Of a stretch of DNA of 17,578 nt, positions 1,306 through 15,812 are shown piece after piece. How positions within the stretch are numbered: the first letter of the stretch is position 1; each line of letters begins with the position of its first letter. Both the position numbers and the translations under genes were made by a program. Source of the stretch: a virus; UHGV virus genome UHGV-0086244; one strand, 5' to 3'. Under the pieces are notes generated by a model. The model did not search any database. It was not told the DNA's origin and saw only the letters and a list, made by a program, of their open reading frames with translations.

Positions 1306-1468
1306 GATTCCTCCTTGCTGCCAGTCGCAACCATTTTTTATCAACCAGGCTGGCGGTATATCCGAGCAGTGTTGGTATTTCGGATGGCTTCGGCTCAGGC
1401 TTACGCTTACGACGATTTGATACTCTGTAGATGTGTCCGTTCATGACACGAATAAGCGGTGTAGCCAT
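1298..1468 (-). CDS. ninE: NinE-like protein (56 aa), found by hand translation
   Basis: Minus-strand [59 protein letters not shown]; its ATG overlaps the ybcN stop (TAATG); order ybcN-ninE-ybcO-rusA as in DLP12. Confidence 0.7.
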   Translation of the reverse strand: MATPLIRVMNGHIYRVSNRRKRKPEPKPSEIPTLLGYTASLVDKKWLRLAARRNHG

Positions 1469-1923
1469 TACGCCTCCTGCTTGTCACGGAGCAGCTGGAA
1501 CTCGCAGCTCTGCGGAATAGTCAGGTGGCAGCCAATATTCACCGCCCAGGCTTCAACCTTACACAGGAAGACATACATCTCTCCGGTATCGAGGTCGGAG
1601 GTATGGCGTAACGACTGAATAGTGGTGATTTCACCGGTTATGACATCAACCAGTTCTTTGGTTTCATAACCGAGGTATGTGTGTTTGAGAGCATCTTTTA
1701 CCCATGCTGCAGTAGCGAACGATTTCCCCCTGCTTATGAGGTATTCACTGATTTCGCTGTACCACATGTGGCTGAGTGCATTCTGGGAAAGGCTGCGTTT
1801 CTCACGCCACGGTTTAAGCACCATGCGAAAGCATTTGCCTTCCTCCAGATAAGGCTGGATCTGCTGGCCGATAGCAGTGAAGTTACCACGATGCAATTTG
1901 ATGCCGTCTTGTGGGAGGTTCAC
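1468..1923 (-). CDS. ybcN: YbcN-like protein (151 aa, NinB-position gene), GTG start
   Basis: Protein [32 protein letters not shown]... recognised as E. coli DLP12 YbcN-like; GGAGGTGA RBS 5 nt upstream of the GTG. Confidence 0.8.
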
Positions 1924-1952
1924 GCTTCACCTCCGCAGAGGTCAAACGCTGG

Positions 1953-2084
1953 ATGCAAAAAATCGCAGGTGCATCTCTGCATCTGTGAAGGGAGAAGAGA
2001 GTTTGGATTGTATGTGCGCATAAACGTCCCCGTTTAGCGCAGAAGTCACCGGAGTTGTTCAGGTTCCGGTGATACAATTATGGC
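1953..2084. repeat. Copy 1 of a ~130-bp imperfect direct repeat (partner at 4126..4256)
   Basis: Hand alignment of atgcaaaaaatcgcaggtgcatctctgcatctgtgaagggag...cgtccccgtttagcgcagaagtcaccggag with the second copy shows near-identity with a few substitutions/indels; contains a stem-loop tcaccgga-N11-tccggtga. Confidence 0.75.
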
Positions 2085-2133
2085 GAATTGATGACGGAGA
2101 ATCAATTTTGCGAAAATGACACGATTGATCTAC

Positions 2134-2766
2134 TCAGGCCTTGGAAAGCTTGAGCTTACCCTTTACGTGCAGAGTGTTAATTAACCAGAAGGCCCCGAGC
2201 AAACACATACAATGCGCGCTAGTGACTAACTTACAAATACGAATGCGATTTTCTTCAAGATCAGGAGGTAGCTCTTTCATCAACGCTATAGCGTAGATTC
2301 CATCCTTGAGAATTGGCTCAACAACTTGATGCACGTAGTCACCATGGTTAATCTCTTCTAACTTTATGTTTTTAATCGATTCTGCGAGTTTATCAACCTC
2401 TTCATTTGTAATTACATATTCAATTTTATGAGCGTACTTGTTACGTATTGTGTTGAGCTCAGCCATAGCGTCTGCAAGCGAGACAGGAAGCCCTAACAGA
2501 ACTGCGGCAGACAGCTTTGACGCAAAATACTTATAACTTCTTATCGAATTGTATTTTTCAGAGCCATCAGGTCGTAAGTTTTCAATAACAACCCGAAGAA
2601 AGTCCTCATGAATTAGCATCAATTTTAATAGCGCGGCAGACTCATCCTCATAGTTAGCTATCGAGGCCATTTTATTAAGATCTAGAAAATAGCCAAAGTC
2701 ATGATCGATTTTCACGTAGTTACCCTCATCCGTTGTTGGACTTTGTTCAATTCGAGAGAATTTCAT
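2134..2766 (-). CDS. Hypothetical protein (210 aa) with an R-x4-H motif (IRNKYAH) typical of HEPN RNase domains; candidate toxin or abortive-infection effector
   Basis: Long ORF in an AT-rich cassette; AGGAGG RBS 8 nt upstream; start overlaps the stop of the upstream 58-aa ORF (ATGA); motif LNTIRNKYAHKIEY resembles the HEPN R-N-x-x-A-H signature. Confidence 0.6.
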   Translation of the reverse strand: MKFSRIEQSPTTDEGNYVKIDHDFGYFLDLNKMASIANYEDESAALLKLMLIHEDFLRVVIENLRPDGSEKYNSIRSYKYFASKLSAAVLLGLPVSLADAMAELNTIRNKYAHKIEYVITNEEVDKLAESIKNIKLEEINHGDYVHQVVEPILKDGIYAIALMKELPPDLEENRIRICKLVTSAHCMCLLGAFWLINTLHVKGKLKLSKA

Positions 2767-2939
2767 TTATCTTCCTCCTGTTTCATATATCTAGGGTCAG
2801 ATGCTTTAGGCTGGGTGATGCTATGCTCAATGGAGAAGCCGGACGCGCTCCATGTTGATTTGCCAGTTTGAGCTATCGTGACAACACATTCATTATTGTC
2901 GATGTTAACTTCGCGCAGCACTGGTAACTGTGAATTCAT
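2763..2939 (-). CDS. Small hypothetical protein (58 aa), translationally coupled to the downstream 210-aa gene; candidate antitoxin or partner
   Basis: Hand translation: MNSQLPVLREVNIDNNECVVTIAQTGKSTWSASGFSIEHSITQPKASDPRYMKQEEDK; AGGAG RBS 7 nt upstream of the ATG; stop TGA overlaps the next ATG. Confidence 0.5.
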   Translation of the reverse strand: MNSQLPVLREVNIDNNECVVTIAQTGKSTWSASGFSIEHSITQPKASDPRYMKQEEDK

Positions 2940-3101
2940 TTTCTAACTCCTGTTTAATGTTGACACCGCATTTATGCTGTCACGACACAATTACTTTCTA
3001 TCCTGCTGTGATGCTGCTGACAGCGGCATCCAATACCTTACCTTCTCAGCATTCTGCAAAATCGATGACGAGTCATGACCGGTTCGCGTAGCTCAGTGAA
3101 A

Positions 3102-3710
3102 TTACTGCAACCTTTCCTGACGGAAATATGGTAACACTCGACTCCACTTATCATCCTGCCAAGGCTGGAATTTTACATGTGCCGTTTCTCTGGCGAGGAT
3201 TGCTCGCGCTCTGTTGAGTATCTGGGGATATTCTTGCTCGATAGAAGTAAAGCGACCGGCTTCGCGGTGCTCCGCGACCTGAAGAAGTGGAGTAACGTTC
3301 TGGCAGGCAGTTAACATCACATCACTTGCTCGCCATAACCAAGCAAGTGTGCAAAGTTCGTTATCAGTGAATTGTTTTGTGATTGGGAATTGTTGAATTT
3401 CTCGATCGAGAAGATCCAGCACCCAGCGGCGGAATTCTTTGGCCACAGGAGTACGAGCAAACATGGCGATCAAATGGGCTCCGCGAAGGCTAAATACTCG
3501 AGACTCCTGCATTCCACGAGGGGTGGTCACTTTGACCACCCTTGTCATCAGATCTGTGAATTCATCTGAGTGCCGAGAGTAAATGCGCTGAACTGCTTTA
3601 TCGTCCGCATATTCCAGTGCTAAACCAACTTCAGTGGCAGTAAGCCAAATTCTGTTATTGTGGCAAATCGGGGTAAACGTCGTTTTGTGGAATGCTAATT
3701 GAGTAGTCAT
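3102..3710 (-). CDS. Bro-N / KilA-N-like DNA-binding protein (202 aa), putative antirepressor
   Basis: N-terminal pattern FTPICHNNRIWLTATEVGLALEY...RGAHLIAMFARTPVAKEFRRWV resembles the Bro-N domain consensus (I-R-x-x-x-G-x-x-W-F-x-A-x-D-V-A-x-x-L); GAGGTGA RBS upstream of the ATG at 3710. Confidence 0.55.
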   Translation of the reverse strand: MTTQLAFHKTTFTPICHNNRIWLTATEVGLALEYADDKAVQRIYSRHSDEFTDLMTRVVKVTTPRGMQESRVFSLRGAHLIAMFARTPVAKEFRRWVLDLLDREIQQFPITKQFTDNELCTLAWLWRASDVMLTACQNVTPLLQVAEHREAGRFTSIEQEYPQILNRARAILARETAHVKFQPWQDDKWSRVLPYFRQERLQ

Positions 3711-3734
3711 AGTATCACCTCATCAGGTTAACCA

Positions 3735-3767
3735 TCACCACCAACGACGCCAATCGACTGGTGGTGA
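3735..3767. promoter_or_regulatory. Inverted repeat (caccacca-N15-tggtggtg) just upstream of the Bro-N gene RBS; possible operator or 5'-UTR structure
   Basis: Read directly from the sequence: tcaccaccaacgacgccaatcgactggtggtga. Confidence 0.3.
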
Positions 3768-3865
3768 ACTGTGTAAGGTTGGCGTAACCGGCTACTCAAA
3801 CCCGGCGCTTCCGAAGAAGCCCTCACACAGCCCACCATAATTTGGGCATAGCCGTGCTTAGCGCA

Positions 3866-3888
3866 CAAAAAAACCGCTTAACGCGGTA
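3866..3888 (-). terminator. Candidate intrinsic terminator on the minus strand (5-bp GC-rich stem ACCGC/GCGGU, loop GUUAA, then U7)
   Basis: Minus-strand RNA would read accgcguuaagcgguuuuuuug; lies about 85 nt downstream of the small hydrophobic ORF 3974..4063. Confidence 0.4.
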
Positions 3889-3973
3889 TGCGTTGAGTAG
3901 TATCCCGGGACGCCAATCCCGTGTGCCGATTTTGCGGCAACGCACAGAATATAGCGCCGGATAAATCATGTCG

Positions 3974-4063
3974 TCAACCCCAGTAAATGGACACCATGAT
4001 GATCACAGCCATAGTTGCTACAACAGTTACAACTACCTCAGGCCAAAACATAACGATTTCCAT
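3974..4063 (-). CDS. Small hydrophobic peptide (29 aa, MEIVMFWPEVVVTVVATMAVIIMVSIYWG); candidate membrane peptide
   Basis: ATG preceded by AAGGTGA 4-5 nt upstream; single predicted transmembrane stretch; followed by the candidate terminator; lies immediately downstream of repeat copy 2. Confidence 0.4.
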   Translation of the reverse strand: MEIVMFWPEVVVTVVATMAVIIMVSIYWG

Positions 4064-4125
4064 ATCACCTTTAGCCGCCAGACGAATAGAGACTCCCAAT
4101 TCTGGCTGTCGAAGTAAAACACCGA

Positions 4126-4256
4126 ATGTAAAAAATCGTAGGTGCATTTCTGCATCTGTGAATGGAGATGAGAGTTTGGATTGTGTGTGCGCATAAACGT
4201 CCCCGTTTAGCGCAGAAGTCACCGGAGTTTTTTAGGCTCCGATGACAATATTATGG
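4126..4256. repeat. Copy 2 of the ~130-bp imperfect direct repeat (partner at 1953..2084)
   Basis: atgtaaaaaatcgtaggtgcatttctgcatctgtgaatggag...cgtccccgtttagcgcagaagtcaccggag aligns with copy 1; the stem-loop is retained with one arm substitution (gtcaccggag / ctccgatgac). Confidence 0.75.
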
Positions 4257-4341
4257 CTTTTTTATTTCTAAATTCAAAACTTGAAAATATTAAGATTCGC
4301 TTTTAAATCAACCCTAAACAACTGAAGATAACATCTGATAG

Positions 4342-6856: not shown

Positions 6857-7782
6857 AAATCCACCCCATAAATCCAGTCAGTGTTTGTCAGGTCCAGTTT
6901 TGATTTTCCGGCTGTCACTCCTGCCTGTTGCTTGTTACGGTTGATTTCGAGCTGGGTCCACTTGTCGCGGAGTTTGGCCGGACTTAGCACGTTACCGGAC
7001 CAGAAGTTGTCCTGGCATGCCCAGCGGAACAGCACGCACATGTCGCGGTGGTTACGTCCGTCACGTTCACGCATCAGGCGGATATCGTTAGCCCACCCTG
7101 CAAAATTCGGTTTTCTGGCTGATGGCGCGATGGTCTTCACCATGTCAAACATCCACTCTGCGGCGGTCAGGTCTTCTGCTGTCCCCCACTTGCTGCCGCT
7201 CTGAATTGCAGCATCCGGTTTCACCACAGGAAGATCGTTTTCTGGTTGGTCAGAGGATTCGCCAGAATTCTCGGACGAAAAAGGTTTTATATTGTCTTTT
7301 GTTAGTTTGTCTTTTGTGTTTACCTGATTCGGGTAAACGCCTTTACCTGATTTGGGTAAACTTTTTTTACCTGATTCAGGTAAATTTACCTCTTTCAGGT
7401 AAACTTTATTTTTCTTACCTGATTCGGGTAATGTTGACCATTCACTGACCACATTATTAATGCCGGTATTCCGCCCGCTCTGAATAAAAATCCCACGCTT
7501 TACCAGAACACTTTTTGCAGCAGAACACTTGTGCGGCAATATCCCGGTTAATTCGGAAAGTTGCTCGTTGCTAACCCAATCCAGTTTTTTATTAAAGCCA
7601 TATGTTTTGCGCATGACAGCCAGAAAGACCAGAAGCTGGTGCTGTGTTAATCCGGCCAGCATCACAGCTTCCAGCAACTCATTTGCAATGCGCGTATAAC
7701 CATCATCGAGATCTGCCACGCGCGGCTCCTTTTGTGCCGCATCCGGCACTGGAAAATTGAATATCTCAGCAGTGTTTGCCAT
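6853..7782 (-). CDS. O: Replication initiator O (chimeric: non-lambda N-terminal iteron-binding domain, lambda-like C-terminal domain); start placed at internal ATG 7782
   Basis: C-terminal half (HSGESSDQPENDLPVVKPDAAIQSGSKWGTAEDLTAAEWMFDMVKTIAPSARKPNF...) matches lambda O from memory; GGAGG RBS before the ATG at 7782; N-terminal MANTAEIFNF parallels lambda O MTNTAKILNF; the origin iterons lie inside the gene. Confidence 0.9.
   Translation of the reverse strand: MANTAEIFNFPVPDAAQKEPRVADLDDGYTRIANELLEAVMLAGLTQHQLLVFLAVMRKTYGFNKKLDWVSNEQLSELTGILPHKCSAAKSVLVKRGIFIQSGRNTGINNVVSEWSTLPESGKKNKVYLKEVNLPESGKKSLPKSGKGVYPNQVNTKDKLTKDNIKPFSSENSGESSDQPENDLPVVKPDAAIQSGSKWGTAEDLTAAEWMFDMVKTIAPSARKPNFAGWANDIRLMRERDGRNHRDMCVLFRWACQDNFWSGNVLSPAKLRDKWTQLEINRNKQQAGVTAGKSKLDLTNTDWIYGVDL
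7318..7434. repeat. Replication origin: five 17-bp iterons (TACCTGATTCGGGTAAA-type, each with inverted ends TTTACC/GGTAAA) with an adjacent AT-rich tract at about 7285..7320
   Basis: Direct repeats at about 7321, 7344, 7368, 7387 and 7416; located inside O as in lambda ori; AT-rich segment on the side expected from the lambda arrangement. Confidence 0.8.
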
Positions 7783-14044: not shown

Positions 14045-14223
14045 AACATCCTCACGATAATATCCGCGTAGGCACGATCACTTTCGTCTACTCCGTTACG
14101 AAGCGAGGCTGGGTATTTCCCGGCCTTTCTGTTATCCGAAATCCCCTGAAAGCACAGCGGCTGGCTGAGGAGATAAATAATAAACGGGGAGCTGTATGCA
14201 CAAAGCATCTCCCGTTGAGTTAA
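14035..14223 (+). CDS. Lambda orf60a-like small protein
   Basis: Protein [28 protein letters not shown]... resembles lambda orf60a as remembered; position directly after exo. Confidence 0.7.
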
Positions 14224-14387
14224 GAACGAGTATCGAGATGGCACATAGCCTCGCTCAAATTGGAGTCAGGTTTGTGCCAATACCAGTAGAAACAGACGAA
14301 GAATTTCATACGTTAGCCGCATCCCTTTCACAAAAGCTGGAAATGATGGTGGCGAAAGCAGAAGCAGATGAGAGAGACCAGGTATGA
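14196..14387 (+). CDS. Lambda orf63-like small protein
   Basis: Position and size match the lambda orf63 slot; sequence identity to lambda not confirmed from memory. Confidence 0.6.
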   Translation: MHKASPVELRTSIEMAHSLAQIGVRFVPIPVETDEEFHTLAASLSQKLEMMVAKAEADERDQV

Positions 14388-15209: not shown

Positions 15210-15812
15210 TCATTCAGTATCATCACGCGCGGTCTGTGCATATGTCACTACCGCACCTAATATATTAATTTTCTTTTCAACATAGATAATATTATCGTAC
15301 TCATAATTGCCATACGGATAGCAAATGCGAATATTCTCATGTAGATCGGGGTCATCCACCTCAGCTCCAGAACAACTTTTTGAACTACCGGAAGTATACC
15401 GATACGGTGCAACATAAGACGATGTCTCTCCAGGCAAAAAATAAGTTAGTGTCGTAAGGGGTATAATCAGAAAAAATCCAGCAAATATGCACATCCCTGC
15501 ATAAACCTTAAGGTATGCTGACAGACTCTTCCAGCCTCTTTGTTTTACTATCCCCTTCTTAACCCAAAACAGAGATAACAGAAAAGCTATTCCCATGCTA
15601 AACAGAATGTAATAGTGGGATATACTCTGATTAAGAAACGTGACCCTGTAGATATCTGCCCGCCACCAGAAGAAAAGGAAAATAAAGATCAGCCCTGAAA
15701 CTGTCATGCAAATCAAATAAGGATACGAATCTTTTTTCATGTTTAGCGCCCATAAAATTTTTCCTGACCCGGACAAATTTACCATCCATTTTTTGCGCAG
15801 AAAATAGCTCAT
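15210..15812 (-). CDS. Hypothetical inner-membrane protein (200 aa, about three TM helices plus a roughly 75-aa soluble C-terminal domain); moron in the ea22/ea8.5 position
   Basis: AT-rich ORF antisense to the pL operon; hydrophobic segments YLICMTVSGLIFIFLFFWW, YYILFSMGIAFLLSLFWV and VYAGMCIFAGFFLIIPLTTLTYFL; start codon uncertain. Confidence 0.6.
   Translation of the reverse strand: MSYFLRKKWMVNLSGSGKILWALNMKKDSYPYLICMTVSGLIFIFLFFWWRADIYRVTFLNQSISHYYILFSMGIAFLLSLFWVKKGIVKQRGWKSLSAYLKVYAGMCIFAGFFLIIPLTTLTYFLPGETSSYVAPYRYTSGSSKSCSGAEVDDPDLHENIRICYPYGNYEYDNIIYVEKKINILGAVVTYAQTARDDTE

Follow-up and report, generated by a model that had tools for sequence, protein, structure and literature searches.

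Two direct repeats in the 17,578-nt genome of the virus UHGV-0086244 (the window, meaning this whole stretch of DNA) bracket an anti-repressor cassette, and one of them stands directly ahead of ybcN. Sequence comparison suggests that the nin operon of phage-82/DLP12-type lambdoid phages opens with a conserved leader, the orf33/ylcH region, and that both repeats are copies of it, a reading to which we assign a probability of roughly 0.7. The pair is most likely a duplicated cis-regulatory leader at a recombination-prone module boundary, a mosaic and not a fresh local duplication. The general kind of device is known and the locus is already annotated, and in these respects the finding is mostly ordinary. 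It is the structured-RNA nature of the leader, and of its first stem-loop especially, that is of moderate interest: neither repeat matched any Rfam 15 family, at the gathering score or at E<=10, and our searches of the literature on ylcH, on ybcN/ybcM with small RNAs (sRNAs) and on phage 82 orf33 found no relevant description.

A repeat search over the 17.6-kb window returned as its longest direct repeat a block of 147 nt (1938-2084 and 4111-4257, hereafter copy 1 and copy 2; spacing 2173), 88% identical and ungapped, the runner-up being only 31 nt long. Pairwise alignment of the two copies recovered the same block, which begins at a -10-like GCCATAAT and fades about 15 nt ahead of the ybcN start. 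The original prediction of a near-identical pair of about 130 bp was thus borne out, at the location it had given, with gene-side ends that lie 15 nt further on (1938 instead of 1953, 4111 instead of 4126). It had also described small indels between the copies, which we did not find; the core differs by substitutions only. The window itself is a lambdoid prophage in reverse orientation, identical to E. coli 20KM0223N (NZ_CP151045).

Copy 1 corresponds to the start of the phage 82 nin sequence X92588 (positions 50-225; 92.0% identity over 176 nt) and to K-12 572285-572460 (91.5% over 176 nt), while copy 2 matches the phage 82/K-12 leader at about 87% over 155-164 nt. In the X92588 record a -35 and a -10 are marked as putative, an inverted repeat bears the label "possible regulator-binding site", and orf33 overlaps orf151. 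The counterpart in the K-12 prophage DLP12 is ylcH (b4588), ahead of ybcN, and RefSeq annotates the same 33-codon open reading frame (ORF) in the NZ_CP151045 genome. Copy 1 therefore shares with these loci its position, its ORF overlapping the ybcN/orf151 start, its putative -35 and -10, and its inverted repeat. It had been described simply as lying upstream of ybcN, which it does, but it also holds this ORF (2021-1920), whose stop overlaps the ybcN GTG (1923-1921). What the phage 82 and DLP12 records do not annotate are the four-hairpin RNA, its covariation and the duplication before an anti-repressor module; the phi80 record labels the second hairpin merely "IR4". Copy 2 also departs from the phage 82/DLP12 leader in having a 53-codon ORF variant that is not coupled to ybcN.

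The element is widespread. Of 5426 complete E. coli genomes, 2770 contain a match, and 44 phage records do so too; the element occurs in lambdoid phages of at least six genera, and it is also present in phi80, HK225, HK639, CobraSix, KO-TP1 and ENT1, as well as in Citrobacter, Siccibacter, Enterobacter and Phytobacter genomes. When ybcN loci were retrieved via the YbcN protein, and hence independently of the element, it lay directly upstream of ybcN in every E. coli-type locus having upstream sequence; the Pantoea and Rosenbergiella homologues were without it. Conversely, among 121 viral-contig matches collected with a 22-nt core pattern, 117 had a NinB/Orf-family gene, of one of three subtypes, behind the element. 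Together with the conserved promoter and covarying hairpins described below, the NinB-family genes behind the element in many phages support the earlier suggestion of a duplicated regulatory leader at the start of the nin region. The parts of copy 1 are as follows, SL denoting stem-loops.

2100-2105, minus strand: -35-like TTGATT, outside the repeat proper; TTGAxx is conserved.
2077-2082, minus strand: -10-like CATAAT, the putative minus_10_signal in phage 82 X92588.
2046-2072, minus strand: SL1, with loop CCUGAACAA (2055-2063), supported by covariation; the "possible regulator-binding site" of phage 82.
2016-2040, minus strand: SL2, with loop GGGA (2027-2030) and the leader AUG (2021-2019) in its 3' arm.
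1920-2021, minus strand: leader ORF ylcH/orf33, 33 codons, whose UGA overlaps the ybcN GUG (GUGA, 1923-1920).
1957-1987, minus strand: terminator-like SL3 (1964-1987, with a UGCA-GAGA-UGCA core) and a U6 run (1957-1962), inside the leader ORF.
1922-1949, minus strand: SL4, in copy 1 only, pairing the ybcN Shine-Dalgarno sequence (GGAGG) and part of the start codon.
1468-1923, minus strand: ybcN (NinB/Orf family, phrog_72), first gene of the nin operon and predicted to be coupled to the leader ORF.

The compensatory changes in the hairpins, conserved across genera, show selection on the RNA. The hairpins were compared in loop-anchored, ungapped alignments; MAFFT/RNAalifold runs on whole leaders misaligned the variable stems and recovered only SL1 and SL3, in part. 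SL1 occurs as 46 distinct hairpins, with 8-13-bp stems of very different sequence around a loop that is nearly always YCUGAACAM. Its alignment cells are paired in 94.1% of cases, against 66.6% in shuffles (0/500 as high), and its covariation score is 0.74 against 0.23, with slid registers reaching at most 49%; the loop position was picked as the best-pairing candidate, which is a mild bias. On the gene's strand there are 69 G.U pairs against 11 A.C mismatches, and so the strand that folds is the sense RNA. SL2 has 12 distinct stems, with two to four pair types per position, around an invariant GGGA loop that serves as the Shine-Dalgarno sequence of the leader ORF, the start codon following 4-6 nt downstream in the 3' arm. 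SL3 has a UGCA-GAAA-UGCA core and an outer stem, then a U-rich run; one pair is changed from A-U to U-A in Siccibacter, which is compensatory, and in Phytobacter a hairpin of 8 bp still forms from unrelated sequence. SL4 is built from several unrelated stem sequences, and among 81 distinct sequences there are 76 whose minimum-energy fold pairs the Shine-Dalgarno sequence of the NinB-family gene. The entire copy 1 leader folds into SL1-SL4 at -56.1 kcal/mol (z = -4.9).

The promoter ahead of these hairpins also appears to be conserved. TTGAxx, a 17-bp gap and xATAAT are retained over 29 different spacers and many unrelated upstream flanks, and copy 1 thus has a putative conserved sigma-70-type promoter, TTGATT-17-CATAAT. 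In most alleles a TTGAT-N8-ATCAA palindrome covers the -35 and spacer (2088-2105 in the window), and phi80 has a compensating TTGATA...TATCAA version. The palindrome, which is absent from copy 2, Siccibacter, Enterobacter and Phytobacter, is a candidate operator for some regulator. SL1 has itself been suggested as a DNA operator, an inverted repeat for a dimeric regulator, by the phage 82 record that annotates it as a possible binding site just downstream of the -10. We find this highly improbable, because arms that change sequence yet keep complementarity, tolerating G.U but not A.C, are what marks an RNA stem, not a DNA half-site that a protein recognises. In addition, the conserved part of SL1 is its loop, and the palindrome over the -35 makes the better operator candidate.

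The leader ORF varies between 29 and 34 codons and is open in all proximal copies (those next to the NinB-family gene) except one, which has lost 1 nt in the U-run. Its indels keep the frame, and in all genera compared its stop overlaps the start of the next gene as RTGA. The peptide, on the other hand, varies: the N-terminal halves of alleles are unrelated, one allele reading MRPQSELLTLSQ..., and in Phytobacter the second, otherwise conserved half differs too. The conserved stretch ACAATCYRAAC falls in a different frame in each of the two main alleles, and 9 of 10 codon differences between the aligned leader ORFs of copies 1 and 2 are non-synonymous. The peptide belongs to no Pfam or PHROG family. 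It appears, from these comparisons, that what is conserved is the translation of the ORF and not its product. The alternative, in which the unit is a small protein gene, YlcH (33 aa), with a functional peptide and incidental hairpins, can draw on the annotation of the ORF in K-12, RefSeq and phage 82 and on the retention of frame and overlap in all genera, but the variability of the peptide, the shifting frames and the missing family make it very unlikely. For annotation purposes, "regulatory leader ORF" is a better description of "ylcH" than "protein gene".

Sequence features expected of translational coupling are found here, in a frame kept open, a variable peptide, a stop/start overlap, and a downstream Shine-Dalgarno sequence and start that are sequestered. 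From the promoter-like element, the four sense-strand hairpins, the open frame, the overlap and the buried ribosome site we infer a gating mechanism. SL2 would gate initiation on the leader ORF. Ribosomes completing the ORF would melt SL4 and re-initiate on ybcN, which would otherwise not be translated. Ribosomes crossing SL3 would also suppress premature termination of the unmodified-polymerase transcripts that start at the leader's own promoter; if the ORF were not translated, these transcripts would be attenuated at SL3. Transcripts reading through from the early promoter would face the same translational gate. Copy 2, for its part, may supply a promoter and leader to the hydrophobic ORF that heads the isrK/C4/anti-repressor module. 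Leader-ORF attenuators of the pyrBI type have a terminator inside the leader ORF, and overlapping stops and starts give translational coupling. Judged by its sequence, the present leader resembles such devices in its short non-conserved peptide, its terminator-like hairpin within the ORF, its buried downstream ribosome site and its stop/start overlap. It differs in having no evident sensing logic, such as nucleotide or amino-acid codon runs, and in its extra 5' hairpin with a conserved loop.

Copy 2 holds the promoter and SL1-SL3 only, since it diverges before SL4. Its features, and those of the cassette between the copies, are listed here.

4250-4277, minus strand: promoter-like TTGAAT-16-CATAAT.
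4219-4245, minus strand: SL1, with a 10-bp stem including one G.U and loop CCUAAAAAA in place of the copy 1 loop, from the fold.
4189-4213, minus strand: SL2, identical to that of copy 1, from alignment and fold.
4033-4194, minus strand: leader ORF variant of 53 codons, the first 24 homologous to ylcH.
4130-4160, minus strand: SL3, weakened by a G->A change (CCUACG), then U6, from the fold.
3974-4063, minus strand: 29-aa hydrophobic ORF (MEIVMFWPEVVVTVVATMAVIIMVSIYWG), phrog_4612, the first gene after copy 2, with a good Shine-Dalgarno sequence.
3757-3954, minus strand: isrK (3939-3867; RF01394, 58.7 bits) and C4 antisense RNA (3842-3757; RF01695, 74.8 bits), from Rfam.
3102-3710, minus strand: anti-repressor with Bro-N and P22AR C-terminal domains, from Pfam; the end of the block that travels with copy 2.
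2134-2939, minus strand: variable right part of the cassette, a 58-aa and a 210-aa ORF, which differs between phages.

A stem-loop had been claimed for both copies, and one is present in each; one arm of copy 2, however, reads tcatcgga on the minus strand, which gives its SL1 the G.U wobble, and its loop is altered. The copy 2 ORF runs across the start of the hydrophobic ORF and has no stop/start overlap with a NinB-family gene. The 29-aa hydrophobic ORF is conserved among other phages, in which a 6-nt indel leaves the frame intact and the changes preserve hydrophobicity.

Several observations weigh against the leader reading as set out above. An open frame of 100 nt is weak evidence taken alone, because the +1 frame is often open too. 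Copy 2 has two changes at otherwise nearly invariant loop positions and a weakened SL3, and the distal copy of phage IdasGreatGrand has lost its AUG; with its features relaxed in this way, copy 2 may have lost part of its function. Within SL3 the outer stem carries two A.C mismatches, and the U-run after it is broken in many alleles (UUUUUU, UUCUUU, UUCUCU, UAUCUU, UUUUCU and UUUCCU occur). The published K-12 data also fit poorly. Term-seq listed, in two conditions, a weak 3' end classed as "orphan" (572349/572350, plus strand), and none at the position of SL3 (Adams et al., 2021; PMC7815308). Cappable-seq gave a weak start at U00096.2 571565, its sole call nearby, and none at the +1 predicted from CATAAT (PMC4782308). 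The SMRT-Cappable-seq supplement had no entry at the K-12 element locus. An offset of +777, which we take to convert between the K-12 coordinates, puts the Cappable-seq start at 572342, in the 3' arm of SL1. The 3' end sits right after SL1 (…CCGGUGACUUCU^G), 19 nt before ylcH, so that in NC_000913.3 the two weak ends lie within 8 nt of one another at the 3' foot of SL1 and neither matches the promoter or terminator prediction. Sense-strand RNA ends do exist in the K-12 element, and its predicted promoter and SL3 terminator remain putative. The K-12 allele has AAUUCUUUG, however, and the missing 3' end at SL3 therefore does not settle the matter for alleles with U6.

These data bear directly on the terminator that had been suggested. 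Lambda tR2 is an intrinsic terminator just upstream of ninB, and the core of each repeat could be its positional equivalent, an intrinsic terminator or attenuator upstream of the nin genes and Q that insulates each unit from unmodified polymerase. A tR2-like element is plausible by position and shape, SL3 and its U-run lying about 45 nt before ybcN; in copy 1 both the terminator scan and the predicted fold picked out the hairpin with AUUUUUUG behind it, and the SL3 structure is kept even with replaced sequence in Phytobacter. Its function as a terminator is more doubtful. The 4 terminator-like sites of the scan compare with 3.0 expected from shuffled sequence. The stem has 10 bp including the two mismatches and reaches only -9.3 kcal/mol in copy 1 and -4.4 in copy 2, the U-run pairs with an upstream A-rich arm in the full-leader fold, and the interrupted U-runs and K-12 Term-seq result count on the same side. 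Lambda and the present element share a place in the early right operon between replication or accessory genes and a NinB-family gene, as well as a terminator-shaped hairpin with a U-run. They have no sequence similarity (a search of phage records with the element gave no lambda match), and here the weak SL3 lies inside a translated leader ORF and termination is putative. We regard this explanation as possible and tentative, and it is compatible with the leader explanation.

The idea of an sRNA locus, also part of the original prediction, found no support beyond the weak K-12 3' end after SL1. If each copy were a free-standing sRNA gene, its product would run for about 110 nt to SL3 and its U-run, with a C/A-rich single-stranded seed, or for about 30 nt to SL1. 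The layout is indeed that of an Hfq-dependent-like RNA, with a promoter, 5' hairpins, an unstructured ACAAUCCAAACUCUC, and a terminal hairpin and U-run, and the ACAAUCCAAACUCUC stretch is conserved as nucleotides though read in different frames. Against this, the 3' end signal is among the weakest listed, the putative terminator falls within a conserved ORF coupled to the next gene, and we found no Rfam family and no link in the literature between ylcH and an sRNA. The known sRNAs AgvB, AsxR and Pas map elsewhere, downstream of PR' near the lysis genes. We judge an sRNA gene unlikely.

Recombination offers a further explanation, in which the repeats matter only as homology for the gain and loss of the cassette and have no regulatory role. 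Several observations speak for it. More than 15 different upstream flanks were seen, which in many loci switch abruptly at the promoter; the alleles of SL1, SL2 and the ninB-type gene occur in different combinations; the proximal-like part of the distal copy ends at different points among phages; and the right part of the cassette varies. The two copies are as far apart in sequence as alleles taken from different phages, and they were therefore most likely joined by modular recombination and not by recent local duplication. The claim of a recombination linker was accordingly sustained as to the mosaic joint and the variable content past the anti-repressor, but not as to deletion: a query in which the flank of copy 2 runs straight into the sequence beyond copy 1 found the predicted junction in 0 of 5426 complete E. 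coli genomes, of which about 26 have the flank. Since no genome has the contiguous junction, loss by recombination between the two copies is not documented. Cross-genus conservation with compensatory changes, moreover, shows selection on the RNA, and two loci (L008 and L050) have the anti-repressor module without a distal leader copy. A role in recombination and nothing else is, on this balance, quite unlikely. Module-boundary (linker) sequences are described for lambdoid phages in the literature on modular exchange, and the element is like them in being a conserved stretch, with reassorting alleles, where a variable accessory region meets the conserved nin genes. It differs in that here the stretch itself forms a structured leader that is apparently functional.

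Other candidates were tried and rejected. A nut-site reading of SL1 found no boxA-like match near either copy, window matches being at chance level; the SL1 stem of 8-13 bp with a 9-nt loop also contrasts with the short hairpin and 5-nt GNRA-like loop of a nut boxB. An AgvB-like anti-GcvB sRNA, an idea raised by the C/A-rich stretch, was dropped, as AgvB and AsxR are 51-60 nt long and lie 3' of PR'; the Pas sRNAs were ruled out by their location next to holin and lysozyme genes. The repeats are located upstream of ybcN and of the anti-repressor module, not by PR' or the lysis genes, and of the AgvB (RF02702), AsxR (RF02703), isrK and C4 models none matched in the repeats, isrK and C4 matching only at 3757-3939. 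HusR (YnfL) binds near rusA at a site between ybcO and rusA, not in the element. A PR'-like or Q-binding reading was discarded because the region downstream of quuD has no resemblance to the leader. A strong G+C hairpin flanked by A- and T-runs, GGGGCGTTGCAACGCCCC, was noted downstream of quuD in the locus L003 (14085-14125, outside the window); it corresponds to a 3' end that K-12 Term-seq places antisense to ybcQ, and it is probably a terminator at PR' acting in both directions. A kissing partner for the SL1 loop (TTGTTCAGG) had no exact match in the window besides the loop itself, and 11 matches with one mismatch were found against 4.5 expected. On the plus strand at 14181-14202, where a small ORF (14196-14387) begins, the 22-nt TAAACGGGGAGCTGTATGCACA matches the leader segment around SL2 and the start codon at 82%, in inverted orientation to the copies; this is probably a chance similarity of ribosome-binding regions.

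The setting of the repeats is that of a modular early region. On the minus strand the order is O, P, two uncharacterised ORFs, copy 2, the 29-aa hydrophobic ORF, isrK, C4, the Bro-N/P22AR anti-repressor, the 58-aa and 210-aa ORFs, copy 1 and ybcN, followed by ninE, ybcO, rusA, ylcG and quuD. At 7315-7440, within the O-like replication gene, a 19-24-bp unit, TTTACCTGATTCGGGTAAA, is present in four to five copies that look like origin iterons, and a related copy lies at 15758-15783. The bracketed block has the contents first described for it, an anti-repressor (confirmed by Pfam), a 58-aa ORF and a 210-aa ORF, together with the two Rfam RNAs, isrK and C4, which had been overlooked. The label "HEPN-motif" for the 210-aa ORF (2134-2766, minus strand; phrog_5712, function not assigned in PHROG) was not confirmed, as Pfam and PADLOC searches of the 58-aa, 210-aa, 221-aa and 319-aa ORFs of cassettes gave no matches. 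The stop of the 29-aa ORF overlaps the -35 of a promoter-like site for isrK (TTGACG-18-TATATT, 3977-3948), and a c4-a1b1 target match (3954-3902) overlaps isrK below threshold, at 39.6 bits against a gathering score of 46.7. IsrK, this match and C4 stand in tandem just upstream of the anti-repressor gene. The isrK/C4/anti-repressor unit is a control module like P1 immI and Gifsy-1 IsrK-AnrP. As in P1/P7 immI (c4-icd-ant) and Salmonella Gifsy-1 (isrK-orf45-anrP), the RNAs are followed by an anti-repressor; the difference is that here isrK and C4 are cargo between repeats, and the repeat itself matches neither family.

A second leader copy 1.9-2.5 kb upstream was found in 10 of 80 viral ybcN loci and in two isolated phages, PhiR26_1 and IdasGreatGrand. 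In all of these the distal copy is contiguous with a block corresponding to 4257/4214 to 3095 of the window (91-97% identity), which comprises the leader, the hydrophobic ORF, isrK, C4 and the anti-repressor. The interval from the anti-repressor to copy 1 differs, holding the 58-aa and 210-aa ORFs here and a 169-aa ORF, a 118-aa ORF or other content elsewhere; a gene 83% identical to that of the 210-aa ORF lies directly upstream of the leader in L141, a phage that lacks the anti-repressor module. The promoters of distal copies are complete, and their SL1 alleles are shared with the proximal copies of other phages; the point where distal copies cease to resemble proximal ones varies. In PhiR26_1 (L005, 1320-2822) the annotated defence gene PD-lambda-1 lies between ren and the distal leader copy, in the same inter-module region, which makes the DNA upstream of the leader look like an accessory or defence hotspot.

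The leader stands at the entry to an operon that ends in Q, the switch for the late genes and lysis, and with its own conserved promoter it is found in a large proportion of E. coli prophages, DLP12 of K-12 included. It marks a boundary where accessory and anti-repressor modules are swapped, and it is a candidate RNA family absent from Rfam. Should the proposed gating be true, the leader would set the NinB, RusA and Q output of an uninduced lysogen. A bolder and more speculative reading, which we consider improbable, takes the leader as a cis-acting RNA family not described before, which about half of complete E. coli genomes would carry and whose SL1 is a recognition site for a phage or host factor, or a put-like element acting on RNA polymerase itself, controlling the recombination genes and Q from a promoter independent of the main early promoter. 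If true, it could set the spontaneous expression of late and lysis genes in lysogens and in cryptic prophages such as DLP12.

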